A stretch of 64,000 nucleotides of DNA, from the sequence record MK524178.1; one strand, given 5' to 3'. Every line of letters starts with the position of its first letter. The first letter of the stretch is position 1. Origin of the DNA: Escherichia phage PHB12. Positions 21,836 through 37,676 of the stretch are shown one piece after another. Below the pieces are notes generated by a model. That model was not told the DNA's origin. It made no database searches and was given only the letters and a program-made list of their open reading frames with translations. The position numbers and the translations under genes are program-made.

Positions 21836-21844
21836 TGCTAAATG

Positions 21845-21874
21845 CAAAAAAAGCCCCAACCTTTCGGAAGGGGC
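21845..21874 (-). terminator. rho-independent terminator (GCCCC...GGGGC stem, GAAA-type loop, U7)
   Basis: GCCCCAACCTTTCGGAAGGGGC at 21853-21874 preceded on plus strand by A7; same stem sequence recurs at 22476 and 37655. Confidence 0.7.
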
Positions 21875-21879
21875 TTTGA

Positions 21880-22437
21880 TTAGTTTTTGTAATATCGTAA
21901 AGGGTTGATATGGAATGAAAGCATTGCGCGTGGAATAGGACGACTCAAAAGACTCTTAAGTTTCCAACCACAATAAACACGCAGATAAAATGTAATACCA
22001 CCAACCTTAAGATAAGGTATAGCAGCGAATAATCCCCATGCAGACTCGTTCCAAACTAAAAGATATCCATGATGTGCCGGATCAGGAGATCCAGATTTAG
22101 TTTCGGCGTTGCCTTTATAGTGCCATTCTGATGAAGCTTCGCGACCTAAAACATGATACGAAAAATTATATGCTTTGTTGCGCCATAGCCAAGCTACGCG
22201 TTGAGCATATTTACCTATAACAGGAATTTTACGTATTTTAGACCAACGTTCAACATGGCCGCGGTCACCATCGATAGGATTATCGTAAGTCATCATCCAG
22301 TCAAAGCCATAAGGTAGTTTACCGGTTTTTTCACTATGGAATGGAACTACAAATGGTGCTAGAATAATTGCTAAAATCGCTGCGATCCAATCTATAGGAA
22401 CAAGAACAACCCAACTTATATATTTTAAAAATTTCAT
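21880..22437 (-). CDS. membrane protein, apparently late-expressed
   Basis: 185 aa; N-terminal hydrophobic region (YISWVVLVPIDWIAAILAIILAPFVVPF); late-promoter match directly upstream. Confidence 0.45.
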   Translation of the reverse strand: MKFLKYISWVVLVPIDWIAAILAIILAPFVVPFHSEKTGKLPYGFDWMMTYDNPIDGDRGHVERWSKIRKIPVIGKYAQRVAWLWRNKAYNFSYHVLGREASSEWHYKGNAETKSGSPDPAHHGYLLVWNESAWGLFAAIPYLKVGGITFYLRVYCGWKLKSLLSRPIPRAMLSFHINPLRYYKN

Positions 22438-22461
22438 ATATCCTCTCTTAGTTTACAAGGA

Positions 22462-22469
22462 TATTTATA
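22462..22469 (-). promoter_or_regulatory. T4-type late promoter TATAAATA (minus strand)
   Basis: Plus-strand TATTTATA at 22462-22469, exact reverse complement of the late consensus, about 25 nt upstream of the 21880..22437 start. Confidence 0.55.
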
Positions 22470-22470
22470 C

Positions 22471-22497
22471 AAAAAGCCCCAACCTTTCGGAAGGGGC
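22471..22497 (-). terminator. rho-independent terminator after rI (same GCCCCAACCTTTCGGAAGGGGC hairpin)
   Basis: Hairpin 22476-22497 preceded by A5 on plus strand (U5 on minus transcript). Confidence 0.65.
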
Positions 22498-22504
22498 AGG
22501 TAAA

Positions 22505-22807
22505 TTAGATAGATGTAGGCTCTAATTTTATTTTCATGAACTCGGCAAATTGTCTGGCAGTTTTTATGCCTTGTTCATGACATTCAAATGCATCATCACA
22601 GGGGCTATTTTTGTAATGCTTTACCATATACTTATAGAATTTTTCAGAATTCTCGACATTTTGAATTTCAAACAAAGTATATACGTTTTTAATCCCTGAT
22701 TCCATAAAGTTATCAAAATATGGGTCGGTATACGCAGTGCCAACGATAGGAGTTGTTGCTGCAAAAAACCCCAGCATCGCCACAATGGCTATCGCTCTTA
22801 AGGCCAT
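22505..22807 (-). CDS. rI: lysis inhibition regulator rI
   Basis: 100 aa; MALRAIAIVAMLGFFAATTPIVG... signal-anchor plus DPYFDNFMESGI and CxxxxxC pattern resembling T4 rI as recalled; lies upstream of tk as in T4. Confidence 0.65.
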   Translation of the reverse strand: MALRAIAIVAMLGFFAATTPIVGTAYTDPYFDNFMESGIKNVYTLFEIQNVENSEKFYKYMVKHYKNSPCDDAFECHEQGIKTARQFAEFMKIKLEPTSI

Positions 22808-22819
22808 ATAGGCCTCCTG

Positions 22820-23032
22820 TTAATTTTGGCCAGTATTTATTTTTCGCCTTTGGACGGCCTTAACATCTGCGAGGTATTTTTCCAGCTTACGCTTACGAGT
22901 ATAATCTGCTTTAGAACCGGTTTGACGGATATCCTCATTTAAATGAGAAATAGAATGTCCTAATTCTCTTCGGATTTCATCCAATTGGGTTACAGTAAGA
23001 TTACGAAGTTGTCTTTCGTTTAATTGCTGCAT
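22820..23032 (-). CDS. hypothetical protein
   Basis: 70 aa charged ORF. Confidence 0.4.
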
Positions 23033-23056
23033 ATATACCTCTTGGTTAGATATTAG

Positions 23057-23064
23057 TATTTATA
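23057..23064 (-). promoter_or_regulatory. T4-type late promoter TATAAATA (minus strand)
   Basis: Plus-strand TATTTATA at 23057-23064, overlapping the 3' end of tk. Confidence 0.4.
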
Positions 23065-23641
23065 ACAACCCTGTCAAATCATTCCAATGCTTCCGGCATA
23101 ATGACACATATCTATCGGTGTCACCAATTTCAATTTGACTGCCATCTGTAATTGGAAGTCCGTCTTCAGTGACTCTAGCTACCATTGTGGCCTTTTTACC
23201 ACAATGACAGACACCTTTAAGTTCAACAAGCTTATCGGCAATAGCCATTAATGCTTGAGAACCTTCAAATAGATTACCTTTAAAATCTGTTCGTAGTCCA
23301 TATGCCATTACCGGCACATTGTATACGTCAACAATACGACTAAGTTGATACACCTTTTCAGTAGTTAAGAACTGAGCTTCGTCAACAAATACACAATGAA
23401 TATCCTTTTGTGCTGCAGCCCATTTATAGAATTCAAAGATATCCATGTCTTTTGTAATTATATTGGCGTCCTGACGAATACCAATACGAGAGACTATTTC
23501 ACCTTTTGAATCGCGAGTATCAATAGCCGGTTTAAGAACTAATACACCCATGCCACGTTCTTTATAGTTATGTGCGGCAGTAAGTAATGAAGCAGACTTA
23601 CCAGCGTTCATAGCGGCATATGTAAAAATTAAACTAGCCAT
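23060..23641 (-). CDS. tk: thymidine kinase
   Basis: 193 aa; P-loop YAAMNAGKS and C-terminal zinc-ribbon cysteines; same length as T4 Tk. Confidence 0.9.
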   Translation of the reverse strand: MASLIFTYAAMNAGKSASLLTAAHNYKERGMGVLVLKPAIDTRDSKGEIVSRIGIRQDANIITKDMDIFEFYKWAAAQKDIHCVFVDEAQFLTTEKVYQLSRIVDVYNVPVMAYGLRTDFKGNLFEGSQALMAIADKLVELKGVCHCGKKATMVARVTEDGLPITDGSQIEIGDTDRYVSLCRKHWNDLTGLL

Positions 23642-23831
23642 AAGAGTCCTTAGTTAAATTTTCTAAATATGTTTCTAAATCATTTTCAGCTTTATCGATA
23701 GATTTTACTAATTCGTAGTATGTTTCAGCATCTCCATAATCCGAAGCCAATTCAAAAGATAAATCTCGTTCTAAACCAATAATTTCGCTGATTAAAAATC
23801 GTATTTCATTCTTTTGTTCGCGAGTAATCAT
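23634..23831 (-). CDS. hypothetical protein
   Basis: 65 aa acidic ORF upstream of tk; overlapping stop/start. Confidence 0.4.
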   Translation of the reverse strand: MITREQKNEIRFLISEIIGLERDLSFELASDYGDAETYYELVKSIDKAENDLETYLENLTKDSYG

Positions 23832-24019
23832 AAGGAATTTATATAATCAATAAGTTCTTGTTCTTTATCGTCGAAATCTTTACACAGTTCTTCATATTCA
23901 TCGGTATTAAAAGGACCGCATTCATCACAAACTTTTTCCAATTCATTGTTTTTATCCATAACTTCATGAATAAGAGAAAACAGTCTGTCTTTTTGTTCTT
24001 TGCTTAAACTCATAACCAT
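23828..24019 (-). CDS. hypothetical protein
   Basis: 63 aa acidic ORF. Confidence 0.4.
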   Translation of the reverse strand: MVMSLSKEQKDRLFSLIHEVMDKNNELEKVCDECGPFNTDEYEELCKDFDDKEQELIDYINSL

Positions 24020-24237
24020 GTCACCTTTAAGCAGTATTCTTCTACATGTTGTTTACGACCTTTCTTATCAATAAAGGTATATTCAACGAATGTTCCAATG
24101 TAGTCTTTATCTACATCATGTGGACTATTAATTGGGCATTTAGTACGACAAATGCGTTCCCATTGACGAATAATTACTGCCTTATTCTTTGGGTCGTATG
24201 GATGTGGATAATGTATATTCATAATAATGGTTCCCAA
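24010..24237 (-). CDS. hypothetical protein
   Basis: 75 aa ORF. Confidence 0.4.
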   Translation of the reverse strand: MGTIIMNIHYPHPYDPKNKAVIIRQWERICRTKCPINSPHDVDKDYIGTFVEYTFIDKKGRKQHVEEYCLKVTWL

Positions 24238-24716
24238 TCAACAATCACAATTTCTAGTTTAGTGGAATACGTATCTAAAATCTCTTCGATGACAACCCAG
24301 TTTCCACCACCGATACCTGCACCAATTCTTGGCATATAAATTACAGGCTTTGTTATCTTATTCTTTCCGAATTCATTTAATTCTATTATACAATTCATTA
24401 AAGCAAAGTACTCAAAATTAGGTCCCGGCTCAAACTGTGTATAAAGATTAAAGCAATAAGCTTTATGGGTCTTAAAATATTTTTCATAAACCGAATAAGT
24501 CCCGAGTTTAGACTCGTCTCCGAATTCGGTTTGAAGTTTATCGGCTTCTAAAATTTTTGGATAAGCCTTTGCTAATTGTCCTGCCACACCAGCGCCCATT
24601 GTATGAAAACAATTACACCCATGAGCAATATTATTACCTTTAGAAAACAGGGCGACAATATCGCCCTTGATATAGTTTTTAATCACTTGCTGCAAGTCCT
24701 CTAGTATAAGAGTCAA
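24219..24716 (-). CDS. macro-domain protein (predicted ADP-ribose binding/hydrolase)
   Basis: 165 aa; glycine-rich loops GAGVAGQLAKAYP and GAGIGGGNW typical of macro domains. Confidence 0.6.
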   Translation of the reverse strand: MTLILEDLQQVIKNYIKGDIVALFSKGNNIAHGCNCFHTMGAGVAGQLAKAYPKILEADKLQTEFGDESKLGTYSVYEKYFKTHKAYCFNLYTQFEPGPNFEYFALMNCIIELNEFGKNKITKPVIYMPRIGAGIGGGNWVVIEEILDTYSTKLEIVIVDWEPLL

Positions 24717-25026
24717 CTAGACGGTCCACCATAGAATTGCATGCTGCCTTATCTTTAGGTTCCGCCACCGAGCATTCTAATATTTGCCATTTTTTATGAT
24801 ATCGTTTAATTAAGGTAGACGCCTTGAACCTACTAGACGCCCCATCTTTTTCTCCGTCTTTATATGCGTATAACAATTTTTGTGAAAAATCTACTTTACA
24901 CTCTTGACTTTTACCACAATAATCAGATGCCGTTCTGTTTGTATACTCCGTTACATCAGTATATGTAGTATTAGCAAGAGCGTTAAATGAAACCAAGCCA
25001 ACTATTAAAGCCAACATTTTGGTCAT
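24679..25026 (-). CDS. secreted/periplasmic protein
   Basis: 115 aa; N-terminal signal peptide MTKMLALIVGLVSFNALA; four cysteines. Confidence 0.4.
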   Translation of the reverse strand: MTKMLALIVGLVSFNALANTTYTDVTEYTNRTASDYCGKSQECKVDFSQKLLYAYKDGEKDGASSRFKASTLIKRYHKKWQILECSVAEPKDKAACNSMVDRLVDSYTRGLAASD

Positions 25027-25565
25027 TCTTTTATTTCCAGTAGTTTATTTGATTTAAGGTAATTAGCCTTTTCTAGGACTTCAGAAGCATATTTACTTCC
25101 AGCACTTGTCTTCCATCCCGCATTATATGAGGATATAGCTTTTCTTATATCCCCGTTATGTATATTTAACCAATAAGAAAATTCGATATAAGCCCATCTG
25201 GCTGAATTAGACCGCTTAGATAGCATTTTCTTAATTTGGGCATCAGTCATATTATAACCAAGCTGGTTAATTCTTGCCCTCATTGTCGGTAGATAATTTT
25301 GGAACATTCCATACGCATGGTGACCTTTCTTATCTTTAAGATTAATACCGGCAGATGATTCCTGCCATAGTATTGCGGCCATTATGTATCCAAGTCCTTT
25401 CTTATGCATATTTTCATGCGTTTTAAATTTTCCATCCTTAGAAAACTGTTCCCCAAACTGATAAGCATAATTCAAGTTATCGAGTTGGACATTACTAAAA
25501 GTATGCTCGGAGCTATGTGCTGATAACGAAAGAGCAAATAGACCAGCGAGTAGTGCTTTTCTCAT
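25023..25565 (-). CDS. soluble lytic transglycosylase-like protein (SLT domain) with signal peptide
   Basis: 180 aa; signal peptide MRKALLAGLFALSLSA; catalytic-region signature ...AAILWQESSAG...GMFQ...; T4 carries a comparable gene between tk and regB. Confidence 0.65.
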   Translation of the reverse strand: MRKALLAGLFALSLSAHSSEHTFSNVQLDNLNYAYQFGEQFSKDGKFKTHENMHKKGLGYIMAAILWQESSAGINLKDKKGHHAYGMFQNYLPTMRARINQLGYNMTDAQIKKMLSKRSNSARWAYIEFSYWLNIHNGDIRKAISSYNAGWKTSAGSKYASEVLEKANYLKSNKLLEIKE

Positions 25566-25573
25566 GTTTACCT

Positions 25574-26032
25574 CTAGATTTTAATCACTGCTTTAGAAGC
25601 TTTTCCTGGTAGTCGTTTATTGTTAATAATAGCCATTCTGCATTGAAGAGTCTTCATTTTGAATGCTGGATTTTCACGACAAACTGTAAGTCCTAACCAA
25701 AGATTTCCATCAGTTATTTCTAAACGGCCTGGGCGATATTCGACACCTTCGACAAAATCTTCATCAACATCTGGACGGGCCGGCATTGATAAAAATTCTG
25801 CAACTTCTTTAACATGATTTTTTACTTTACGAAATAATTCAAAAACGTAGTTCTCATCTATTTCTCTCTGGATGGCACGATCTAAGAGATGTTGAGAATA
25901 CTTGATATGAAAGCCTGGTAGTCCAAGAGACTTTGCAGCATCTTTTATACCGGCATTTATTTTGCGGAACTCCGTTTCAAAGATTCGACGGAGTTTATTA
26001 CGGCGGATAAAAACGTCTGAATTGATAGTCAT
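25574..26032 (-). CDS. regB: RegB site-specific endoribonuclease
   Basis: 152 aa; MTINSDVFIRRNKLRRIFETEFRKIN...KYSQHLLDRAIQREIDE... matches T4 RegB as recalled. Confidence 0.85.
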   Translation of the reverse strand: MTINSDVFIRRNKLRRIFETEFRKINAGIKDAAKSLGLPGFHIKYSQHLLDRAIQREIDENYVFELFRKVKNHVKEVAEFLSMPARPDVDEDFVEGVEYRPGRLEITDGNLWLGLTVCRENPAFKMKTLQCRMAIINNKRLPGKASKAVIKI

Positions 26033-26060
26033 TTTGATTTCTCCTCTAGTTGACAGGTCT

Positions 26061-26089
26061 ATAGTAACACAACTAGAGGAGAAGTAAAC
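26061..26089 (-). promoter_or_regulatory. early promoter GTTTAC-17-TACTAT upstream of regB
   Basis: Minus strand GTTTACTTCTCCTCTAGTTGTGTTACTAT; GAGGAG RBS follows. Confidence 0.55.
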
Positions 26090-26093
26090 TACT

Positions 26094-26309
26094 TTATTGA
26101 TAAAATGGAGTTAAAGCCCAAGATTCTTTAGATACCATGTTGGCGAAATGCCTCATCTCTTCGATTTGGCGACGACGCTGGTCAGCATAGTCTTCTTCGC
26201 CTTCTTCCTTACAATCTTCAAGGTCTTCTTCAAGATACTTTAAGTATTCACTACAAATTTTGTTGACCTTTTCTTGAAAGTCCAATAACCCAGTAATAGT
26301 AGAAGCCAT
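26094..26309 (-). CDS. hypothetical protein
   Basis: 71 aa acidic ORF. Confidence 0.4.
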   Translation of the reverse strand: MASTITGLLDFQEKVNKICSEYLKYLEEDLEDCKEEGEEDYADQRRRQIEEMRHFANMVSKESWALTPFYQ

Positions 26310-26577
26310 TAGTATTTTTCCTCAGGTCGAAATACTGCACGACATGCCCACATGCTGGCTTCTTTTAGATGTTGCTTAGCATACTTAAGAGCCTGCACTG
26401 CATCCATATCTTCTTTGGTTTGTTGCTCTGATTCATTTTCTTTCAAGATATATGCTTCTTCAATCAGAGCATCAAACATCAATCCAAGACGGACTTCTGC
26501 ATCTTTAATAGCGTTCACTTTACTGATTTTATCATCGGTATGCGGCTTGTAGCCTTTGATGTCTTCAATCGACATAA
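26309..26577 (-). CDS. small protein at the T4 vs.4 (Acb2) position, tentative anti-CBASS sponge
   Basis: Track ORF trimmed to internal ATG (MSIEDIKGYKPHTDDKISKVNAIKDAEVRLGL...), 88 aa; call rests on position between regB and the GrcA-like gene and on size only. Confidence 0.35.
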
Positions 26578-26789
26578 GGAATTTCCTCATCGGTGGCAAG
26601 GTCATATTCGACCAATTGGATAGGCTCGTTAATACCATATCCACGTACAGTGATATCGGTTGTCGGATATTTTCCAGTAATATCACCCATTCTAAATGCT
26701 TCAGTGAATGATTGCTCGCCTGAGCAACTAAACCAGGCGGCAAAACATTTTAAAACATCTTCAGACCCTTCTATAATCAATTTAGCCAT
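26565..26789 (-). CDS. hypothetical protein
   Basis: 74 aa ORF. Confidence 0.4.
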   Translation of the reverse strand: MAKLIIEGSEDVLKCFAAWFSCSGEQSFTEAFRMGDITGKYPTTDITVRGYGINEPIQLVEYDLATDEEIPYVD

Positions 26790-27151
26790 TATAGACTCTC
26801 AGTAAAGGTACGAGCGATAACGTCGCGTTGCTGTTCTGGAGTCAGAGAGTTAAAGCGAACTGCATAACCGGATACACGGATGGTCAGCTGTGGATATTTT
26901 TCCGGATGCTTAACTGCATCTTCCAGAGTTTCACGACGCAGAACGTTAACGTTCAGATGTTGACCACCTTCAATTTTAACTTTAGGTTGATGTTCAATTT
27001 CAATTTCACGGGCATTCAAACCGTAGAAAATTTCCGGGTCTACAATAGCGTCTTCTTTAAAAGTCTTAGAGACGATAATCCGGGCTTGAGTACCGTCTTC
27101 AAAATAAATAGTGCCTTTATGTGCACCTTCAAGAATTTGATATGCTTTCAT
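26789..27151 (-). CDS. autonomous glycyl-radical cofactor (GrcA/YfiD-like)
   Basis: 120 aa; C-terminal glycyl radical motif [25 protein letters not shown], as in pyruvate formate-lyase C-terminus. Confidence 0.8.
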
Positions 27152-27157
27152 ATAACC

Positions 27158-27466
27158 TCAATTAGAAAATAAATTTATCCAAGATTTTTCTTTAATCAAA
27201 AATGGGTCGGAATTAAACGCCATTAAACTTTGAGTGATTAATCCCTTAAATGGCCCATCAATAAATTCCATTTTGAAATGTGGAATACTAGTCATCAACC
27301 GTGCATTAGGAGCAGTACAAAGAACGTGCTGCCCTGCGAACGGACCTTTAGTCAAACGATATCGTTTAGGTTTAAAATGGTAAATCTCGTAATTTTCTAC
27401 AAGAGCCCTTTTATTGCATACTGGGCTGTTATAACAATACTCAAAAACTTCAATAGTGGTCATCAT
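27158..27466 (-). CDS. hypothetical protein
   Basis: Track ORF trimmed to internal ATG (MMTTIEVFEY...) giving ATGA overlap with the upstream gene. Confidence 0.4.
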   Translation of the reverse strand: MMTTIEVFEYCYNSPVCNKRALVENYEIYHFKPKRYRLTKGPFAGQHVLCTAPNARLMTSIPHFKMEFIDGPFKGLITQSLMAFNSDPFLIKEKSWINLFSN

Positions 27467-28002
27467 TGCATTCCAATCACAAAAAATTGAGGACGAGCAA
27501 TACCGCCGATGCAATATTTGCTTTTGCAGCAGTGCTGTACTGATTTAATATGGACATTGTAAATCTTATCCATATCAGGAGCTTTAATAGGCTCGTCAAT
27601 TATATACAGAATACGAGAAAGCGTTAATCCACGGAATTTAGAACCTTCATTGCCAATAAAACTACGGACAGAATCAGTAAATAAACGGAATCGAATATCA
27701 TCGCTAGAATAACGAGAAAATTCTTTTTTAATGTTGCCAACAGAAATTTTAGCATAAGCTGAAGTATTAGAAAGAACAATAACTGTTCCACCGTCGTACA
27801 GCCAATTAACAGCAAAATTAGTTACTGCGGTCGATTTACCTGATTGTCTGCCGCCGTCTAAACGAAGTGTACAGTACTGCTTGAGTACGTCTTCAAATGG
27901 CGGGATATAACCATTCTTACAAATTTCTTCTACTCTAGCATCAGAATGGTGTGTAAAAGCATTCATCAGGGATAGATAAGGTCCGGTTAAAAATGTTCTC
28001 AT
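27463..28002 (-). CDS. hypothetical protein with P-loop-like motif
   Basis: 179 aa; GGRQSGKSTA resembles Walker A. Confidence 0.4.
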   Translation of the reverse strand: MRTFLTGPYLSLMNAFTHHSDARVEEICKNGYIPPFEDVLKQYCTLRLDGGRQSGKSTAVTNFAVNWLYDGGTVIVLSNTSAYAKISVGNIKKEFSRYSSDDIRFRLFTDSVRSFIGNEGSKFRGLTLSRILYIIDEPIKAPDMDKIYNVHIKSVQHCCKSKYCIGGIARPQFFVIGMQ

Positions 28003-28243
28003 TTAGTTTCTCTTTTAGGTTGGGCTGTTCCGTGGCACATGAATTGTCCATTTCTGTATTTACCCATTACCGCACTTGGGCTCGACCTTATTACAGGTTG
28101 GCGGGAATCCCTCATAGAATCATGAGGTCCAGGTTGTTCCCATGTTATTTGAATGTAAATATTTTTGCCTTAATACTTATACCAGTGTGGCTTCATTAAA
28201 ATTTTTTCATCGAGTCATTTTACCTCTCCAAGTAATTATGAAT

Positions 28244-28273
28244 ATACTATCACAATTTTAGGAGAAAGTAAAC
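28244..28273 (-). promoter_or_regulatory. early promoter GTTTAC-18-TAGTAT with long structured leader
   Basis: GTTTAC at rc of 28268-28273; the nearest downstream minus-strand gene start is at 28002, implying a leader of about 230 nt. Confidence 0.45.
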
Positions 28274-28275
28274 TG

Positions 28276-28578
28276 TTATTTACCTTTAATTACTTTAGCT
28301 GCTTCGATAGCCGCTTGCTGAAGGTCGTCCATAGACATACCGAATTTAGAAGCAAAGTTATCAATTTTCTTTTCGACAGCATTCAAAGGCTTGGCCTGTT
28401 TACCTTCATTAGCGCCAGGAAGAGCGAGAATACGCTCTTTGTCAATATAAAGGCTTACAAGTTTCTTACGGTCTTTATCGGATAAATCATGAAATGAATG
28501 GGCCTTTTTATTTATAGCGGCTTCTAATTTACCTGCACTCACTCGCGCTTCAGTAATAAATTCTTGATATGTTTTCAT
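28276..28578 (-). CDS. ipI: internal protein I (IPI) precursor
   Basis: 100 aa; N-terminal capsid-targeting leader MKTYQEFITEA and body (KLEAAINKKAHSFHDLSDKDRKKLVSLYIDKERILALPGANEGKQAKPLNAVEKKIDNFASKFGMSMDDLQQAAIEAAK) closely match T4 IPI as recalled. Confidence 0.8.
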   Translation of the reverse strand: MKTYQEFITEARVSAGKLEAAINKKAHSFHDLSDKDRKKLVSLYIDKERILALPGANEGKQAKPLNAVEKKIDNFASKFGMSMDDLQQAAIEAAKVIKGK

Positions 28579-28599
28579 ATGTTTCCTTTAAATGTAAAT

Positions 28600-28617
28600 A
28601 GGCCTAAGTATCGGCCT
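28600..28617 (-). other. intergenic hairpin (AGGCC/GGCCT stem) between two internal-protein genes
   Basis: Inverted repeat AGGCCTAAGTATCGGCCT; no U-run, so more likely a processing/attenuation structure than an intrinsic terminator. Confidence 0.35.
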
Positions 28618-28619
28618 TA

Positions 28620-29198: not shown

Positions 29199-29228
29199 TT
29201 TTGTTTCCTTGTTTGTTTTGATAGAGTA

Positions 29229-29258
29229 ATTATACCATATTAATACTTAAGCGTAAAC
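29229..29258 (-). promoter_or_regulatory. early promoter GTTTAC-18-TATAAT
   Basis: Minus strand GTTTACGCTTAAGTATTAATATGGTATAAT upstream of the 28620..29198 gene. Confidence 0.55.
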
Positions 29259-29261
29259 TGT

Positions 29262-29522: not shown

Positions 29523-29530
29523 TTTTTTCC

Positions 29531-29944: not shown

Positions 29945-29971
29945 AATTTCCTCCAAGTAGTTGATGAATGT

Positions 29972-30001: not shown

Positions 30002-30002
30002 A

Positions 30003-30769: not shown

Positions 30770-30771
30770 AA

Positions 30772-30795
30772 TACCTCCCACGTTTATAGGAGGTA
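30772..30795 (-). promoter_or_regulatory. gene e leader hairpin sequestering the Shine-Dalgarno, with late-promoter-like TATAAACG inside
   Basis: Inverted repeat TACCTCC/GGAGGTA (30772-30795); minus strand reads TACCTCC-TATAAACG-TGGGAGGTA-TT-ATG. Confidence 0.55.
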
Positions 30796-30803
30796 TTTAT
30801 TAC

Positions 30804-31262
30804 TTATAAGAGGGTAGTGAGCACCTTATATAATGATTTGCCCATTACATATTCCCATTGAGAAGGTTTAATTAAAGCGAATGCATCAAATTCAGGAATC
30901 TGTCGTCCATCCGGGAACGTATGATAGGAATTACAAACACTGTTTCTGAATTGCTCGTGCTCTACAGGGATGGTATATAAGAACAGATGAATATTCTTAT
31001 TGTCTGAGTAATGATGTTCACCTAGGTCTTTCAGGAAGGCAGGGTCATATTGTGTAAACCCAGTTTCTTCTTCGCATTCACGAATAGCGGCTTCGATAGG
31101 AGATTCACCGGGCTCGACACGACCTTTAGGAATATCCCACCGATGAGCTAATGCACCTTTAGGACGAGAACCAGTTACACGGCCCATGAATAACTCTTTA
31201 TCTTCGGTAAGGAAAATAATACCGGCTGATAGTTCTTTCACTTTATTTTTCTTACTCATCAT
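30804..31262 (-). CDS. nudE: Nudix hydrolase NudE
   Basis: 152 aa; Nudix box GRVEPGESPIEAAIRECEEETG; adjacent to e as in T4 (e.1). Confidence 0.8.
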   Translation of the reverse strand: MMSKKNKVKELSAGIIFLTEDKELFMGRVTGSRPKGALAHRWDIPKGRVEPGESPIEAAIRECEEETGFTQYDPAFLKDLGEHHYSDNKNIHLFLYTIPVEHEQFRNSVCNSYHTFPDGRQIPEFDAFALIKPSQWEYVMGKSLYKVLTTLL

Positions 31263-31503
31263 CTCGGTCCCATGATTTGGCCATTAATTCGGACATAAAT
31301 TCTTCAATGCGCGTTTCTTTAGATGGACTTTCACTATTAGAGACCGCAAGTTTGTAATCTGCAATAGGACAGAACATATCAAGGTCCATATTAAGGTCGT
31401 CTTTGATTTTTTCTTCTGACACATCTTTATCGTATGTGTACAGATAACTATCACATGATTCTGATTTAATGTAAATTGCTATACTCATCTCAAATTCCTG
31501 CAT
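31252..31503 (-). CDS. hypothetical protein
   Basis: 83 aa acidic ORF. Confidence 0.4.
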   Translation of the reverse strand: MQEFEMSIAIYIKSESCDSYLYTYDKDVSEEKIKDDLNMDLDMFCPIADYKLAVSNSESPSKETRIEEFMSELMAKSWDRDDE

Positions 31504-31964
31504 TCGGTAATAAAACGTTCAACTTCATTATTCTTGGCTTTTATCTTGTCTTTATGTTCTTGTAAACTACTTTTAATAAGATTAATAATGATGGCGGCGG
31601 TACCGCCGCCAATGATGCCACCAACAACGCTTATGATACTAGATGCTAATAAGATAGCAATAATATCAACAAAACCGAAAGAACTCACCTTAGTACTGAA
31701 AAACCATATAGATGGTACAAATATAATCCATCCTGTTATCCATTGGCACTTATTGAAAAACTTTTCAAGCTCAGCTTGAGTTGTTCGTATTACTTCATCG
31801 ATAGGTTGATATCCATTAATGTATCTGTTCACGATAATACCTGCTGGCTGGTCGATTTTAAATTCTTGGCAAATATGTTTCACTAAGTAGGATGGACATC
31901 CTGTCCAATCTACTGAATAGTATGAAATACCTTCATTGCCATCGTCTATATTATTGTTAATCAT
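31485..31964 (-). CDS. membrane protein
   Basis: 159 aa; two hydrophobic segments including a glycine-zipper-like IISVVGGIIGGGTAAIIINLI. Confidence 0.4.
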   Translation of the reverse strand: MINNNIDDGNEGISYYSVDWTGCPSYLVKHICQEFKIDQPAGIIVNRYINGYQPIDEVIRTTQAELEKFFNKCQWITGWIIFVPSIWFFSTKVSSFGFVDIIAILLASSIISVVGGIIGGGTAAIIINLIKSSLQEHKDKIKAKNNEVERFITECRNLR

Positions 31965-32650
31965 TACCAGCCTTCCATAGGGAATTCCAGATAAACTTGA
32001 GCATTGACACGAATTTCATTGGTAATCTTTTTAACTCGGTCTGTATTACGAGATACACGTCCGAACCAACGCCATCCATTACTAATTGCACGAGAACCAG
32101 TGTGCCATGTTTGCCAATCAAACTGAAGAAGAGTACGATCTGGAGCTTCCCATTTCTCTAGTTCACCTTTTTCAATTTTTTCGAGGACTTCTTTGTGCCA
32201 CTGACGATAGATAAGTTCGCCATCAGGAATCTGACTGAACTCTGCAGTTCCTGTTGCAAAATGAGTAGGACACACGTCAGCGTTAACAAGACCAAGAATA
32301 TGTTCAGACAAATAGCGAGGATTGTCATAATCAGGTTGTCCTGCAGTAATAAAATGTTGTCCTGTTGGAATATCTGGGCGTGGTACGTCATCATGGTGAT
32401 ATCCAGGAATAGCAGGGTACCAACCAGGCATCAGCATGTGGACTCGTGAATCAAATACTACATCCGAGTCTTTCCAATCGTCAGGAAGATTTTGGATAAA
32501 GCTACGAGTAATTGGGCCGCCATTATCAAAAGCAAAATTCAAATCGCAGTTAAAGAACATAGGCTCGTTTTTAATCTGGTCGTTTTTAATCGCATGAGCA
32601 AAACCGCCTACTGCACGAGCTTGACTATTAAACACTTTAGAACTATTCAT
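31964..32650 (-). CDS. hypothetical protein
   Basis: 228 aa; His/Asp/Trp-rich, no motif recognised. Confidence 0.45.
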   Translation of the reverse strand: MNSSKVFNSQARAVGGFAHAIKNDQIKNEPMFFNCDLNFAFDNGGPITRSFIQNLPDDWKDSDVVFDSRVHMLMPGWYPAIPGYHHDDVPRPDIPTGQHFITAGQPDYDNPRYLSEHILGLVNADVCPTHFATGTAEFSQIPDGELIYRQWHKEVLEKIEKGELEKWEAPDRTLLQFDWQTWHTGSRAISNGWRWFGRVSRNTDRVKKITNEIRVNAQVYLEFPMEGW

Positions 32651-32651
32651 A

Positions 32652-32957
32652 TTATTTTCCTCGACATTCTTTAATGAAATTTTCTAGATTGGTAGATTCA
32701 ATAGCTTTTTTACGAGCTTCTGCGTGTTCTTCTTCGGACAATTTACATTTATAATTGACCCAGACATTATGGTCGAAACTAGTCGTAGCATATAATAACA
32801 ATGCTCCAACGAATAGCAAAAACGGCGATAAGAATACAAAACCAGGAACACCATCCATATCGTAAGCCTTTTGTAATACTGCAACAGAAAGGGCTGCGTA
32901 AAAAGGTGATGCAAATATTGTTAAAAGACCAATTCGGTTGGTTTCGCCTAATTTCAT
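32652..32957 (-). CDS. membrane protein
   Basis: 101 aa with two hydrophobic segments. Confidence 0.4.
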   Translation of the reverse strand: MKLGETNRIGLLTIFASPFYAALSVAVLQKAYDMDGVPGFVFLSPFLLFVGALLLYATTSFDHNVWVNYKCKLSEEEHAEARKKAIESTNLENFIKECRGK

Positions 32958-32974
32958 AATATTCTCCTCATGTT

Positions 32975-33016
32975 TTAATAGGACTACTATAACATAGTCC
33001 CTATAATTGTGTAAAC
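32975..33016 (-). promoter_or_regulatory. promoter-early stem-loop cassette (ATAGGACTACTATAACATAGTCCCTAT + GTTTAC)
   Basis: Inverted repeat around the -10 region; GTTTAC at rc of 33011-33016. Confidence 0.5.
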
Positions 33017-33028
33017 AGTTTTGTGAAG

Positions 33029-33985
33029 TTATTTGAAAGGTTTTACCATATGGAAATTTTGTTTGAAACGTTTGACGTAATCATCATGTCCTAAGCTTTG
33101 GTACATACTTACTACTTTGCTGTAGTTTTCCCAGGCGTATTCACGGAACCAACCGGAGGTGATGCTTGTACAGACTTTTTCCAATGCCATCATGAAACTG
33201 GCTTCAGGGTTAATTTTAAAGTCATTAGGAATCTGAGAACGTTCTAATGCTAGTACACATGATTCTTCGTATACACCGGCCAACTTGACCATTTCTGGTA
33301 ATGATTCGAACTTCTCGCGTGAGGTCATGACTTCAGAACCATCTTTCATATAAAATGTATACGCTGGACGGTCTGTTAGCGCAATGGCTTCATGAATAGT
33401 ATCATGGTCATATGTATAGATGCCATCTTTAAAGAACGCACTTTTAGAAGTGTCAAGAACTGGGTGAACATAGTTCAAGGTTTCTTTCTGGCGTTTCAGC
33501 ATAATTTCAGTAAGTTCATCGTTCAGTGTAACACCTTTACCACGAAGATACTGAATATGGTTCATAGTCTTTAAAAAGAACGGATTATTTTTCTTGAAAC
33601 GATGAGACATCTTAATTGCAAGACATATCTCAGGAGTCGCCCAGTAAAACCCGTTCAAACGGTCTTTAGTCAAATTTTTCTTGGCGTATTTTAAAAGGTC
33701 ATAAGAAGACGTGAAATCTTCAGGAGTGAGTTCACCGACTAATTCACGGGCATTAGTGATTGCCGGAACAATATATGCTTCAAAATGAGTTTCGCGTCCA
33801 TTATGGAAGCATTTGAAAACTTGGACATCAGGGTTATCTTGATGAACATATACACCCATCATTTGATTTTTGAACGCATTCCAAGAACATTGGTCTGCAA
33901 TAAAGTCCCAATCACTATTTTTGATAGCGCTAGAATCAATAAGACCGTGATAGTGAAGTGCACGAGAACCAATAACTAACATCAT
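33029..33985 (-). CDS. hypothetical protein
   Basis: 318 aa; N-terminal VIGSRALHYHGLIDSSAIKNSDWDF loosely resembles a nucleotidyltransferase motif but spacing is atypical. Confidence 0.45.
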   Translation of the reverse strand: MMLVIGSRALHYHGLIDSSAIKNSDWDFIADQCSWNAFKNQMMGVYVHQDNPDVQVFKCFHNGRETHFEAYIVPAITNARELVGELTPEDFTSSYDLLKYAKKNLTKDRLNGFYWATPEICLAIKMSHRFKKNNPFFLKTMNHIQYLRGKGVTLNDELTEIMLKRQKETLNYVHPVLDTSKSAFFKDGIYTYDHDTIHEAIALTDRPAYTFYMKDGSEVMTSREKFESLPEMVKLAGVYEESCVLALERSQIPNDFKINPEASFMMALEKVCTSITSGWFREYAWENYSKVVSMYQSLGHDDYVKRFKQNFHMVKPFK

Positions 33986-34013
33986 AATATTTTCCTCGGA
34001 TTAATTCATTAAC

Positions 34014-34253
34014 TTAAATTTCACGACATGCGATATCATATTCATCCCAGAGGTCATCGTGTGAAGCCTCTACTAATGGAACGATTGTACCATTTATGTC
34101 TTCATTATAAGGGCAAATTGTACAGTGCGCATCTTCGAATCGGATGCCTTTGTGTTCAGATTTTTTATAACGCATATCGAATATCTTTGCAAACTTTTCA
34201 CGAGTAATGGTTTTAGCAACCACTTTGGTTCCAATACTTTCATAATAAATCAT
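34014..34253 (-). CDS. hypothetical protein (possible Zn-binding, CxxC...H...C)
   Basis: 79 aa ORF. Confidence 0.4.
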   Translation of the reverse strand: MIYYESIGTKVVAKTITREKFAKIFDMRYKKSEHKGIRFEDAHCTICPYNEDINGTIVPLVEASHDDLWDEYDIACREI

Positions 34254-34271
34254 TGTGGACTCCGTTTAATT

Positions 34272-34310
34272 TGATAGGACTACTATAACATAGCCCTATC
34301 TTGTTGTAAA
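34272..34310 (-). promoter_or_regulatory. promoter-early stem-loop cassette
   Basis: TGATAGGACTACTATAACATAGCCCTATC with GTTTAC at rc of 34305-34310. Confidence 0.5.
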
Positions 34311-34315
34311 CTGTT

Positions 34316-34513
34316 TTAGCAAGAATAACTAGATGATACCCAGCCTTGAACAGTGATACTATTGTGGGATAATGAGATCGCGTCCTGGAGATTCAGACCT
34401 GCGTTATCTTCAATCCATAACGTAACTTCTTCGCTTTCTTCTGTTGCAATTTGGAACAGGTTTTCCAGAGCAGCTACTGCCGTACGTACAGCACAATCTA
34501 ATTCACGAGACAT
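34316..34513 (-). CDS. small protein, member 1 of tandem family ending GW(I/V)xSSxxC
   Basis: 65 aa; C-terminus ...VQGWVSSSYSC. Confidence 0.45.
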   Translation of the reverse strand: MSRELDCAVRTAVAALENLFQIATEESEEVTLWIEDNAGLNLQDAISLSHNSITVQGWVSSSYSC

Positions 34514-34522
34514 ATGGTTTCC

Positions 34523-34795
34523 TTAGCAAGTGTGAGAAGATGCGATCCAACCACCAGTTTCGAGGCTTAGGTTGTAGTCGTATTGGTAAACGTCGGCCCA
34601 TTCAGCATAGCCGTTTTTTGTACAACGTTCAAGGTCGGCTTTAAGCTGTCCGGGTGAATGATATGTTCCACCCATACCATAAGCTGGATACAAGTCGAAT
34701 GTTGTGTTTTGTTTATCAGCAATTTCTTTGGCAGCCTCAATAGCTGCATAGATTTTTGCTACAGCTTCAGCCAGTTCGGTTTGTTCTTTAGACAT
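34523..34795 (-). CDS. small protein, member 2 of tandem family ending GW(I/V)xSSxxC
   Basis: 90 aa; C-terminus ...ETGGWIASSHTC. Confidence 0.45.
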   Translation of the reverse strand: MSKEQTELAEAVAKIYAAIEAAKEIADKQNTTFDLYPAYGMGGTYHSPGQLKADLERCTKNGYAEWADVYQYDYNLSLETGGWIASSHTC

Positions 34796-34804
34796 AATGA
34801 TTCC

Positions 34805-35110
34805 TTAGCACAACGCAGAAGACGAAACCCAAGCACCTTCAGTAATAACGTAACCATTACCTTCACGCTTAACATCGCCACCATTATTTTCAATTTCATC
34901 TTTCATCCACTGGGATACGATTTCACCCTTAGGATAATAAGTACGACCGCTACCATAATCACCTACAGAAAATGATACGGCATATTGGTCTGCGATCTTT
35001 GTTGCTTCTTCTTCGATACGTTCAGCTTGGTTCAGAAGTTTATAAATTGCATCTGAAGCGGATTTGGCATCATTAAACTCTGGTACTTTAATTTCAATAA
35101 TCTTACTCAT
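34805..35110 (-). CDS. small protein, member 3 of tandem family ending GW(I/V)xSSxxC
   Basis: 101 aa; C-terminus ...TEGAWVSSSALC. Confidence 0.45.
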   Translation of the reverse strand: MSKIIEIKVPEFNDAKSASDAIYKLLNQAERIEEEATKIADQYAVSFSVGDYGSGRTYYPKGEIVSQWMKDEIENNGGDVKREGNGYVITEGAWVSSSALC

Positions 35111-35466
35111 TTTCTACATTCCTTAATAAAGTTTTCTATTGTTTCATTTTCACGTCTAGCTAGGAGTTCATTATAACTAATCATTTGAGAAGCGTAAACT
35201 TTTTTATTTTTCTTGTTATGGTTTATAAAATCGTAGTAAAAATAGACTACAGTACAAAAGGATGCGATGGATGCAAAGGCTTGGGTATACCGTAAGTCCT
35301 GCCATTGGTCTGTGAATCCACCAGAGTTCCCTATAAATCCTAACACAACGCCGTCAATAAGAAATCCAACTAATCCAAAGGCAAATCCCATGCCAATACT
35401 CATAATAAAAATTAGAATGTTCTCACCAAGAGAAGGCCATACGGTTAAGAGTTGAGGCTTTTGCAT
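35107..35466 (-). CDS. membrane protein
   Basis: 119 aa; three hydrophobic segments. Confidence 0.4.
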   Translation of the reverse strand: MQKPQLLTVWPSLGENILIFIMSIGMGFAFGLVGFLIDGVVLGFIGNSGGFTDQWQDLRYTQAFASIASFCTVVYFYYDFINHNKKNKKVYASQMISYNELLARRENETIENFIKECRK

Positions 35467-35870
35467 CTTATTTCCTTAACGAATTCCATAGCTTCTTCAT
35501 ATTCATACTTTTTAACAGCTTCATCATACTGAGCTTGGGCTTTTGCGCACTGAACTTTCCACTCACGAACTCGAGCTCTGTGATGACGGCCTTGGTGCCA
35601 ATATCCTACCCAGTTAATAGGCATTAATAAAAATGGTACAATAAGTGGTGCGACGAACATTAATGAAAATGCTGCATCAGACGATATAACTTCACTAGAA
35701 TCTAAAACAGCTCCTATAATCATAAAGATTAAAAATGCTAAAGCTAAAATAGGGCCAAATAGTACTTCGTTTGGGATTAATTTACGTTTGTATTCATACG
35801 CCCAAGGCTTAATTGGCATGTATAGGGTTGGCTTTGACATATTCTCTACATTCCATAATAAATTGCTCAA
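35445..35870 (-). CDS. membrane protein
   Basis: 141 aa; two hydrophobic segments; true start may be an internal Met because the N-terminus overlaps the upstream ORF. Confidence 0.4.
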   Translation of the reverse strand: MSNLLWNVENMSKPTLYMPIKPWAYEYKRKLIPNEVLFGPILALAFLIFMIIGAVLDSSEVISSDAAFSLMFVAPLIVPFLLMPINWVGYWHQGRHHRARVREWKVQCAKAQAQYDEAVKKYEYEEAMEFVKEIRCKSLNS

Positions 35871-36426
35871 GGATTAAATTGTTAGTGAAATTAGGACTAA
35901 CAACCATAGTTTCATAAAGCGCATCAATAGCACTTAAAGCATCAACTCTTTTAAGCAAAGGCTTGCCTTCATACATAGTTTCAGAATCGACGATTAACGT
36001 AAAGTAGTATTTTTTATTATCGACTAGAACTTCTGTATCGATATAAAACATATTAGACCTCAGAAGCTTATCTCTAAAACCATAATAATCTTCAGAGCGT
36101 TCGCTGATATATTCCAATTCAGTGTTTAAACAACAAACAGACCACGTAGGAGCAACGAAATCAGTGAATCTAATATCATGGTCTGCAACTAGTTTAGCAA
36201 TAGCTCCGATATCATTAATCATGATACCTGGGGCTAATAAAGATTTTCGGTTATTTGCATATTCAGTTGTCTCATAAGAAGCTGACCAGTACCATTTACG
36301 TCCGGTTGCAACATATCGTAATGAATCGACTAAAGACGTAGGTGGATTTACCTTATCTCGGAACTCTTCGAACATTGAGTCAATATCATTATTTTGGTTT
36401 CGCATGTTAACTCCTTTATTATCCAA
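35809..36426 (-). CDS. hypothetical protein
   Basis: 205 aa ORF. Confidence 0.45.
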   Translation of the reverse strand: MDNKGVNMRNQNNDIDSMFEEFRDKVNPPTSLVDSLRYVATGRKWYWSASYETTEYANNRKSLLAPGIMINDIGAIAKLVADHDIRFTDFVAPTWSVCCLNTELEYISERSEDYYGFRDKLLRSNMFYIDTEVLVDNKKYYFTLIVDSETMYEGKPLLKRVDALSAIDALYETMVVSPNFTNNLILEQFIMECREYVKANPIHAN

Positions 36427-36428
36427 AA

Positions 36429-36446
36429 GGAGGACCGGAGTCCTCC
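36429..36446 (-). terminator. hairpin terminator (GGAGGAC-CGGA-GTCCTCC), possibly bidirectional
   Basis: Perfect 7-bp stem; followed by T-rich sequence on both strands (TTTTGG on minus). Confidence 0.55.
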
Positions 36447-36454
36447 GTATTATT

Positions 36455-37048
36455 TTATTTCAAAGAGTTAATATATTCTTGTACATCAGCAGAAGTGGTT
36501 TCGACACCGGCTGGAGTGCCGTTGAACGTTTCAACACGAGTCAGAGTGTCTTCGATATCAACCTTAGTCAGTGCAGCAATTTCAATCACATCATCAGCCG
36601 TAGAGATACCAAGAGCATTGGCTGCTCGAGTTTCACGAATGTATTCGAGTTTGATTGCCAGATTCTGACGAGCGTCATCAAGTTCAACCACCTTACGAGC
36701 AATTTCAATTCGCATAGCGGCGTACCCGTCAGCTTTTGTATTAAGTTGTTCGGCAGTTCGACGATACAGAAGACCAAGCTTAGCATGCATGGTAACATCT
36801 TGTCCTTCAGCCAAGAGCTTACGAATTTCACGTTCCTTAGAAGCGGCTTGCTTGTTCTTTTCATTAACAAGTTCGCGAATACGTTTTTCTTCATTAATAG
36901 ATTTAATAGAAGCCGTTTTTAGTTCTTTGATTTGGGTAATCAACTTATCTGCAGCTGCGTTATACTGTTCTTCGACAGTCAGATTTTTAGCCATAGCAGT
37001 ACCCAGTTTAGTGCGGATGAATTCAACAAGTTTCTTCAGTGTGTTCAT
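36455..37048 (-). CDS. coiled-coil protein
   Basis: Start set at ATG 37046-37048 ([10 protein letters not shown]...); about 197 aa predicted helical/coiled coil throughout. Confidence 0.45.
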
Positions 37049-37089
37049 ATTATTACCTTTCAATTGGTGGTTTATTATCCAATGAGAGC

Positions 37090-37118
37090 ATTATACTCTG
37101 CTCTCAAGAGTTTGTAAA
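37090..37118 (-). promoter_or_regulatory. early promoter TTTACA-17-TATAAT with -10 inside hairpin loop (copy of the 6765-6800 cassette)
   Basis: Minus strand TTTACAAACTCTTGAGAGCAGAGTATAATGCTCTCATTGG; inverted repeat TGAGAGCA/TGCTCTCA. Confidence 0.6.
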
Positions 37119-37346
37119 TTATTTTTTAATCAAATTGACATAAAATTCTGCATCTTCAGGGTGCATGCCTTCGCAGTATTCTTCAACCATGAACTTCTTA
37201 ACAGCTTCATAAGGGCCACTCAGATTAAGCTTGGTTGTCCAGAACTTGGAATCTTGGGCTGAATCGATACGAACTTCAGGGTGACGGTTGCGAATAACTT
37301 CTTCAGTGTATTCATAATCAACGACATCAATACTAACTGTAGCCAT
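37119..37346 (-). CDS. hypothetical protein
   Basis: 75 aa acidic ORF. Confidence 0.4.
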   Translation of the reverse strand: MATVSIDVVDYEYTEEVIRNRHPEVRIDSAQDSKFWTTKLNLSGPYEAVKKFMVEEYCEGMHPEDAEFYVNLIKK

Positions 37347-37392
37347 TTTGTTTTCCTCTTGATTTGATGTGATTACTATAACATAAACTTAC

Positions 37393-37557
37393 TTAGATGT
37401 AAATTATTTCAACGTCACCTTTAGCTGCTTTATAACCTTCAGCCCAAGATACAACAGAGTTTTTATCCGAGGATTCAAATTCAGGCATTGGACTTTCACC
37501 GATATTCACACAGTATGTTTCTTCATTTTCATCGAACCAAATAATTAAAGTAGTCAT
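37393..37557 (-). CDS. small hypothetical protein (54 aa)
   Basis: ATG at 37555-37557 preceded by GAGGAG; below the ORF-track cutoff. Confidence 0.35.
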   Translation of the reverse strand: MTTLIIWFDENEETYCVNIGESPMPEFESSDKNSVVSWAEGYKAAKGDVEIIYI

Positions 37558-37587
37558 TTTGTTTACTCCTCTGTAGTTGATAAGTCT

Positions 37588-37616
37588 ATAGTATCATGTC
37601 CTTAGAAGAAGTAAAC
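37588..37616 (-). promoter_or_regulatory. early promoter GTTTAC-17-TACTAT
   Basis: GTTTAC at rc of 37611-37616; ATAAGTCTATAGTATCA motif of the cassette family. Confidence 0.5.
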
Positions 37617-37647
37617 ATCTTTATGAAATATTTTTATGCCCTAGATA

Positions 37648-37676
37648 CCAAAAGGCCCCAACCATAAGGAAGGGGC
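37648..37676 (-). terminator. rho-independent terminator closing the tRNA/stable-RNA transcription unit (third copy of GCCCCAACC...GGAAGGGGC)
   Basis: Hairpin 37655-37676 followed on minus transcript by CUUUUGG. Confidence 0.6.

Follow-up and report, generated by a model that had tools for sequence, protein, structure and literature searches.

The promoter-early stem-loops (PeSLs) of T4-type phages are the best described elements of the kind considered here (Arbiol et al. 2010, PMC2839356; Comeau et al. 2014, PMC4122927). Passages of both papers present PeSLs as experimentally demonstrated terminators that are associated with insertions and deletions and form mini-circles in RB49/phi1. The genes of the internal proteins (IPs) offer a second point of reference, as a passage of PMC2839356, citing Repoila et al. 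1994, describes them as hypervariable and shuffled among T-even phages beside PeSL-like sequences. According to passages of PMC3012670 and PMC12373910, IPs carry a conserved N-terminal capsid-targeting signal, and those of T4 are injected anti-restriction factors that inhibit GmrSD restriction (PMC12373910). We analyzed a stretch of 64,000 nucleotides from Escherichia phage PHB12 (sequence record MK524178.1), referred to in its whole length as the window. It comes from a T4-like phage of the genus Mosigvirus that shares approximately 96% identity over 20 kb with phages NHEP29 and SF. A GC-rich hairpin is found three times in the window, twice beside the lysis inhibition gene rI and once behind the stable RNA gene rnaC. 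We consider it likely that the three copies are Rho-independent terminators of minus-strand transcription that double as short junctions for the insertion, deletion and exchange of single-gene cassettes. It is the gene cassette that moves, and the hairpin, which is not self-moving, is its junction or linker. We infer both termination at the hairpins and recombination within them from the sequence.

The motif GCCCCAACC-N4-GGAAGGGGC had three matches in the window (copies 1 to 3, Table 1) compared to 0.01 expected in a pattern search with dinucleotide-preserving shuffles. All three sites named in an earlier note on this sequence were therefore present, and a chance origin was ruled out. On the plus strand the loop reads TTTC in copies 1 and 2 and ATAA in copy 3. 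Together with the adjoining A-run, copies 1 and 2 make up a 27-nt direct repeat, AAAAAGCCCCAACCTTTCGGAAGGGGC (21848-21874 and 22471-22497), which is 100% identical over a distance of 623 bp; a repeat search added a third member at 37650-37676 with 85% identity. As minus-strand RNA the motif takes the form GCCCC-UU-CC-(GAAA or UUAU)-GG-UU-GGGGC with a U-run behind it; its stem consists of five G-C pairs, a tandem U.U mismatch and two C-G pairs and is closed by a 4-nt loop. The earlier note had described a GNRA-type loop and a U-run at every site. Both descriptions hold for copies 1 and 2, which have GAAA loops and runs of U7 and U5, respectively, but copy 3 has the loop UUAU, which is not of the GNRA type, and only a weak tract of C+U4.

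The predicted energy of the 22-mer stem-loop was -13.9 kcal/mol, with a range of -13.7 to -13.9 over the copies. Fully paired analogues were predicted at about -18.5 kcal/mol, such that the tandem U.U mismatch costs approximately 4.5 kcal/mol. Folding z-scores in a 56-nt context were -3.9, -2.8 and -0.5 for copies 1, 2 and 3. A simple terminator scan detected none of the three copies because of the internal U.U mismatch, and it was replaced by a folding-based search for hairpins plus T-runs across the entire window. Among the 37 candidates returned, no second stem sequence was used more than once. Comparison with Rfam did not place the hairpin in a known RNA family: between 36000 and 40000 only tRNAs reached gathering thresholds, and between 21000 and 23500 the sole match was a chance-level IsrM (15 bits against a threshold of 376).

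The features expected of an intrinsic terminator were found at each copy, namely a GC-rich stem-loop, a U-tract (marginal in copy 3) and a position at the sense-strand end of a transcription unit. The distance from the preceding stop codon is 5 nt for copy 1, which follows a 185-amino-acid (aa) open reading frame (ORF; stop codon at 21880-21882), and 7 nt for copy 2, which follows rI, while copy 3 lies 51 nt past the 3' end of rnaC; all neighboring genes are on the minus strand. The annotated genes of the SF stretch that matches window positions 20000-40000 are likewise all on the minus strand. Each copy ends one predicted transcription unit, and the next gene has a promoter of its own, early after copies 1 and 3 and late after copy 2. 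The terminator reading of the earlier note is consistent with this combination of stem-loop, U-run, post-gene position and downstream promoter. A search of the literature turned up no paper in which transcript 3' ends were mapped to this hairpin. As every slot ends in a terminator and the following gene has its own promoter, cassettes could come and go without disturbing their neighbors.

We compared the two sites with related genomes, using 155 related phage records for the rI site, all IMG/VR contigs with the conserved trailer that precedes the hairpin for the rnaC site, and NHEP29, the closest complete relative (169 kb), for genome-wide distribution. Individual IMG/VR and relative loci are labelled L002 to L229, L229 being the NHEP29 locus with the uvsW.1/uvsY.-2 junction. 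In comparison with SF, NHEP29, T4 and the IMG/VR relatives, all three copies fell at breakpoints of gene presence/absence or replacement. At the rI site, the 185-aa ORF is missing from SF, where one hairpin joins the left flank of copy 1 to the right flank of copy 2 and 98 of the 100 bases to the right of this hairpin are identical. rI and a DUF7438 ORF are thus adjacent in SF, and the 185-aa cassette stands between them in the window. The 185-aa ORF was included in the alignment of 22 of the 155 records, which covered at least 80% of the query, while most of the others among the records listed aligned in two pieces covering 67%, and most related records lack the ORF. T4 was rejected as a holder of the ancestral rI-site arrangement, as its rI.-1 overlaps rI and is followed by a different hairpin with a UUCG loop.

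At the rnaC site the slot is empty in the window, where copy 3 stands alone, and also in T4, L040 and L102. In SF, two hairpins with transcript-sense loops GAAA and UUAC surround a 154-aa ORF, in NHEP29 two hairpins surround a 208-aa ORF, and in many T-even phages two hairpins surround an internal-protein-like gene. Cassettes of 153-157 aa occupied the slot in SF, L067, L069, L119, L120, L129 and L227. A 184-aa homologue of the 185-aa gene was found in the slot of L011 and L228; that of L011 lies directly behind the rnaC-site hairpin and is 77% identical to the window protein. In L219 and L225 a 184-aa ORF comes first and a 157-aa ORF second, each behind a hairpin, and the reverse cassette order (154/157 then 184) is found in L221 and L223. 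The gene at the rI site of the window therefore occupies the rnaC site in other phages. The cassette proteins are widespread, with the 185-aa protein in 553 and the 154-aa-type protein in 512 phage records.

T4 allows a direct comparison at this site. Its hairpin, GCCCCGACC-GAAA-GGTTGGGGC plus T5, lies downstream of the tRNA/rnaD/rnaC stable-RNA cluster at the same place as copy 3, 51 nt past rnaC behind the same trailer, and has a U-run and an identical 3' arm, GGUUGGGGC. The two differ in the 5' arm, as that of T4 (GCCCCGACC) allows full pairing through G.U and A-U, whereas the UU of the window produces the tandem mismatch. T4 has this hairpin in a single copy, the UUCG-loop hairpin after rI.-1 being a different one. 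A terminator after the species 1 RNA gene was reportedly described by Broida and Abelson in 1985.

In the complete NHEP29 genome the hairpin family was confined to the rI site and the rnaC site, each with two copies, and to the uvsW.1/uvsY.-2 junction, which has one variant. The earlier note had suggested checking whether the copies coincide with synteny breakpoints, and where relatives differ in the presence of a cassette the break did fall exactly at the hairpin. Its view of a mobile or recombinationally spread module was supported by breakpoints at the hairpin, cassettes that swap slots and orders and homogeneity within genomes, with the qualification that the hairpin does not move alone. 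A high-copy dispersed repeat of the REP (repetitive extragenic palindromic) or MITE (miniature inverted-repeat transposable element) type was rejected, given three loci in the 169-kb NHEP29 genome and at most three exact matches per IMG/VR contig.

The hairpin variants were mostly homogeneous per genome and different between lineages, which fits copies that are related by copying and not by convergence. A UU/UU interior was present in all copies of the window, SF and NHEP29; a GA/UU interior, which G.U and A-U pairs close fully, in T4 and in the two copies each of L119, L120 and L129; and the stem GGCCC-UU-CC...GG-UU-GGGCC in both copies of L219 and L225. The latter is a compensatory change of the outer stem with the U.U interior kept. 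The loops GAAA and UUAU were each found at both loci in different genomes. The window, for example, has GAAA at rI and UUAU at rnaC, L019 and L061 have UUAU at rI, and L069, on the same contig as L061, has GAAA at rnaC. Occasional exchange between copies predicts this pattern of loop alleles at both loci.

Alternatively, independent terminators may have converged on the same favored stem, with cassettes inserted near them by unrelated illegitimate events. The exact stem GCCCCUUCC...GGUUGGGGC was indeed found in 83 IMG/VR stretches with 14 different loops and approximately 35 unrelated flank contexts as grouped by eye, and at 40 terminator-like sites in diverse bacteria; it was also 8-40 times more common than perfectly paired analogues, which suggests that something favors it. 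Convergence does not, however, predict variants (GA, AG, UU and GGCCC-UU) that agree mostly per genome and differ by lineage. Copies 1 and 2 are furthermore identical over 27 nt, loop included, single-copy relatives keep the hairpin precisely at the junction, and the quite different loop alleles occur at both loci. We therefore regard convergence as unlikely and favor the reading of terminators that are copied as cassette junctions.

By this reading, the 27-nt unit of U-run and hairpin would be long enough for occasional homologous exchange by the recombination machinery of the phage. Exchange between two direct copies would loop out the cassette, possibly as a circle, and leave one hairpin behind, and exchange of a cassette-borne copy with a resident copy would insert a cassette. 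Exchange between copies at different loci would homogenize hairpin alleles. For deletion between flanking copies, the evidence here consists of the empty sites with one hairpin in relatives.

Several observations weigh against terminators that act as cassette junctions. Copy 3 has C+U4 alone as its U-tract and bears the energy cost of the U.U mismatch, so that termination efficiency could be modest. The shared tract is just 27 bp, although a passage of PMC2839356, citing Singer 1982, states that small stretches of homology (<50 bp) suffice for recombination in T4. Ordinary recombination in the flanking genes could also spread the presence or absence of a cassette among close relatives. In L011, L221, L223 and L228 the cassette ends distally at a different terminator, which means that a cassette does not require the same hairpin at each end. 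The two copies of L227, and likewise those of L069, are discordant in their variants. Finally, the same stem occurs in unrelated phages and bacteria, which leaves some room for a separate origin of the rI-site and rnaC-site hairpins.

The occurrence of the tandem U.U stem was surveyed in viruses and in 185,579 bacterial and archaeal genomes. The viral stretches with the exact stem (L002-L084) include RB43/RB16/KP15-type phages and many metagenomic contigs of other sizes, and in most of the 83 the T-run lay on the U.U strand. Perfectly paired analogues were found in IMG/VR in 11 stretches as UU/AA and in 2 as AA/UU. With the 3' arm fixed, the 5' dinucleotide among the matches listed was UU in 44, GG in 13, GA in 11, AG in 9 and AA in 2. 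The bacterial and archaeal scan returned 72 sites, 40 of them terminator-like. None of these sites was in an enterobacterial record, and copying of the hairpin from the host was rejected on that basis. Two of the loci, L197 and L215, lie in NZ_JBHSCL010000010.1, labelled Flagellimonas marina, and have hairpin flanks nearly identical to those of RB43/RB16/KP15-type phage contigs; at 178,077 bp, a T4-like genome size, this record is probably a phage genome inside a bacterial assembly.

A dominant role of the UU/UU interior was rejected, as it made up approximately 3% of an unbiased sample of 120 sites matching GCCCC-NN-CC-N4-GG-NN-GGGGC. Fully paired interiors accounted for 45% of the same sample, and UG/UG wobble was among the commonest single types. 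The U.U motif is therefore one favored variant of the general form and not the rule. All natural variants of the T4-like family (UU, GA, AG or GG opposite UU) were predicted to be 3-7 kcal/mol more stable when folded in the sense direction than in the antisense one, and the rare perfect analogues folded symmetrically. One possible but rather unlikely reading is that the U.U interior is selected, as opposed to decayed, either for a strand-specific hairpin or as a mark for a structure-specific factor of cassette exchange. Were this so, the hairpin would be a defined and widely shared cassette linker in several T4-like lineages that works via the terminator and not the promoter.

The conserved mismatch also bears on the possibility of active, targeted cassette movement, in which, much as at an integron attC site, a sequence- or structure-specific nuclease or recombinase would recognize or cleave the hairpin. 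attC sites use imperfect hairpins, and the internal mismatch resembles these. Candidate enzymes are endonuclease VII, through cutting of cruciforms or mismatches, and the unknown factor that Mosig proposed for deletion endpoints at GGGC/GCCC. NHEP29 encodes endonuclease VII, the arms GCCCC/GGGGC match the GGGC/GCCC inverted-repeat deletion endpoints of T4 (Mosig 1998, as cited in a passage of PMC2839356), and in L219-L228 the outer stem covaries from GCCCC to GGCCC around an unchanged UU/UU interior. In T4 and its close relatives, however, the same slot and cassettes go with GA or AG variants that pair fully, and some cassette ends carry unrelated terminators. A mobility enzyme borne by the cassettes was rejected, as a Pfam scan of three cassette ORFs identified no nuclease or recombinase domain (the 185-aa protein is DUF7338, and the 154-aa and 208-aa ORFs had no Pfam match). 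The general phage recombination system is sufficient in principle, and we consider a dedicated enzyme quite improbable.

A role of the element mainly at the RNA level beyond termination, as a 3' stabilizer, processing signal or protein-binding site recognized by its U.U internal loop, appears very improbable. In its favor, the tandem U.U is kept across several lineages and many phages despite its energy cost, and copy 3 sits in the processed 3' trailer of a stable-RNA operon. The loops vary, however, and close relatives have G.U/A-U pairs in place of U.U at the same sites. No Rfam family was matched, and the U-run on the same strand in most of the 83 viral occurrences is the context of an intrinsic terminator.

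Features at both sites are listed in Table 1.

Table 1. Positions of features at the rI and rnaC sites of the window
Feature	Position	Strand	Remarks
rI (lysis inhibition) gene	22505..22807	-	stop codon 7 nt upstream of copy 2
Hairpin copy 2 (22476-22497) with U5 (22471-22475)	22471..22497	-	predicted terminator after rI; proximal cassette boundary
Late-promoter motif TATAAATA	22462..22469	-	1 nt past U5 of copy 2; Shine-Dalgarno sequence (SD) and ATG at 22437 follow
185-aa ORF, cassette cargo between copies 1 and 2	21880..22437	-	Pfam DUF7338, phrog_2143
Hairpin copy 1 (GCCCC-UU-CC-GAAA-GG-UU-GGGGC)	21853..21874	-	predicted terminator of the 185-aa late gene; distal cassette boundary
U7 tract of copy 1	21846..21852	-	A7 on the plus strand
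T4-type early promoter after copy 1	21807..21835	-	-35 GTTTAC (21835-21830), 17-nt spacer, -10 TATAGT (21812-21807)
Small ORF, DUF7438	21600..21779	-	served by the early promoter after copy 1
rnaC (species 1 stable RNA) homologue	37728..37866	-	97% identical to T4 rnaC
rnaD homologue	37873-37992		84% identical
Conserved 51-nt trailer between rnaC and copy 3	37677..37727	-	accompanies the hairpin in other T4-like genomes
Hairpin copy 3 (37655-37676, loop UUAU) with C+U4 (37650-37654)	37650..37676	-	orthologue of the T4 post-rnaC hairpin
T4-type early promoter after copy 3	37588..37616	-	-35 GTTTAC (37616-37611), 17-nt spacer, -10 TACTAT (37593-37588)

The early promoter after copy 1 is followed by the SD GAGGAG and an ATG at 21779, and it aligns with the orthologous promoters of SF and T4. 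Judged by this layout, copy 1 and its early promoter are a composite of the PeSL type. The early promoter at the rnaC site lies approximately 35 nt past copy 3, is likewise followed by GAGGAG and ATG, and serves a 54-aa ORF at 37393-37557. The 185-aa ORF has a hydrophobic N-terminal stretch, as read by eye from the translation.

Repeated early-promoter/SD cassettes of the form GTTTAC...TATAGT...GAGGAG...ATG were found in the window in two families, D2/D3 (21326-21391, 32955-32996, 34251-34316 and 37344-37409) and D4 (21801-21851, 26055-26105 and 37582-37632). The link between the hairpin and promoter cassettes drawn by the earlier note was borne out for copies 1 and 3, which are fused to D4 repeats; copy 2 is joined to the late motif TATAAATA. 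No GC-rich hairpin precedes the D4 member at 26055-26105. Most cassettes of the rnaC slot start with the hairpin, a T-run, (G)TATAAATA and an SD, and the junction of hairpin, T-run and (G)TATAAATA heads cassettes in L073, L119, L120, L129, L219, L225 and L228.

Within the trailer of the rnaC site, at about 37689-37702 on the minus strand, the segments CCCCGAC and AAGGTTG are identical to the core of the T4-type hairpin except for a 3-nt gap between them, a match equalled in just 6 of 2000 shuffles. This looks like a decayed earlier hairpin copy and is perhaps a scar of past cassette turnover. Immediately past the 154-aa ORF of L067 (IMGVR_UViG_2974735671_000001), the 184-aa DUF7338 gene survives as a remnant consisting of the start MKLLK followed by a stop and of the last codons (...HKPIPVLQEL? 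or an end like FHINPFRFYKN), with the interior deleted, an instance of cassette decay in place. Upstream of the rnaC homologue in the window are the rnaD homologue and two tRNA genes, Arg-TCT and Met-CAT (38352-38508), compared to eight tRNA genes in T4. A 130-aa ORF (37989-38381) with a TTG start and no Pfam match separates rnaD from tRNA-Arg and shares a few bases with the start of the rnaD homologue.

The hairpin at the convergent uvsW.1/uvsY.-2 junction of NHEP29 (L229, 5612-5634) falls outside the 64-kb window and reads GGCCC-UU-CC-AAAAA-GG-UC-GGGCC, flanked by A9 and U9. It has a pyrimidine-pyrimidine interior and looks like a bidirectional terminator. The exact UU/UU stem was present at the same junction in Citrobacter phage Moon and in several other T4-like contigs (L012, L015, L024, L027 and others).

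These comparisons provide a sequence-level example of how T4-like phages may exchange accessory genes without breaking their neighbors. A 27-nt terminator unit recurs at slot edges with differing cargo, which includes a DUF7338 membrane-type protein and internal-protein-like genes. The hairpin family may be useful for annotating terminators that standard scans miss owing to the mismatch, and for flagging likely cargo slots in newly sequenced therapeutic phages. It also suggests natural, insulated landing pads for engineering. To a T4 specialist the finding will not be very surprising.

As in integrons, single-ORF cassettes are bounded here by short imperfect inverted repeats, and circular intermediates have been proposed for the analogous PeSL cassettes. 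The likeness ends there: these cassettes carry their own promoters, no integrase is implicated, and the repeat is a 22-nt terminator compared to 60-140 nt for attC. The cassettes were not identified as integron cassettes, as they have their own late promoters, no recombinase domain was found in the three cassette ORFs scanned and the NHEP29 annotation contains no integrase.

The 185-aa cassette also resembles a moron of lambdoid phages. It is an extra gene with its own promoter (TATAAATA and SD) and its own predicted terminator (hairpin and U7), placed between genes that are adjacent in relatives, and by these sequence features it is a moron as defined. It differs in its surroundings, as a passage of PMC2839356, citing Hendrix et al. 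2000, describes moron accretion as thought to be independent of conserved flanks, whereas identical hairpin flanks and reused slots are found here.

Part of the cargo points to the IP loci. The cassette ORFs of the rnaC slot in relatives begin MKSYAEFLTE (154-aa) or MYTFNEFLAE (208-aa), which resembles MKTYQEFIAE, the N-terminus common to IPII and IPIII of T4 and the counterpart of the capsid-targeting signal described for IPs. They are probably internal-protein-type late genes, an assignment made from the N-terminal motif alone. Elements associated with IPs have weaker, AT-rich stem-loops (Arbiol et al. 2010, PMC2839356), and the present stem differs in being GC-rich and exactly repeated. The window also has four neighboring genes with an MKTYQEFIAE-like N-terminus at 28547-30294 (repeat family D1; minus-strand ATGs at 28578, 29198, 29522 and 30284), two of which resemble IPII and IPIII.

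PeSLs and the present elements have several features in common. Both are intergenic composites of a terminator stem-loop and a promoter in hyperplastic early regions, both insulate cassettes transcriptionally, and both flank single ORFs whose presence varies among close relatives. The PST/T4-type layout given in a passage of PMC4122927 (stem-loop, TTTACW-N17-TAYWAT, SD, ATG) is found at copies 1 and 3, with GTTTAC-N17-TATAGT, GAGGAG and ATG at copy 1 and GTTTAC-N17-TACTAT, GAGGAG and ATG at copy 3; copy 2, with its late motif, departs from it. The differences lie in the parts that are repeated and exchanged. The repeated identical part is here the terminator alone (27 nt), and its promoter partner is an early one at copies 1 and 3 and a late one at copy 2 and most cassette heads. 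The phrase "late promoter" is absent from PMC2839356, and passages of PMC4122927 add a middle-promoter version of the PeSL and contain no late-promoter one. Mapped PeSL crossovers fall in the promoter/SD part, between the -10 and the ATG (PMC2839356), and here breakpoints fall in the hairpin/T-run. PeSL stems are of the G-run/C-run (RB49/phi1) or AGNA...TCNT (PST) form, from which the present stem is distinct, and passages of PMC2839356 and PMC4122927 do not include this hairpin family. It is also confined to just three loci per genome. By analogy, the pattern fits recombination-mediated cassette shuffling of the PeSL/moron type. The PeSL idea is extended here to terminator-centered junctions with late promoters, and its underlying concept is unchanged.

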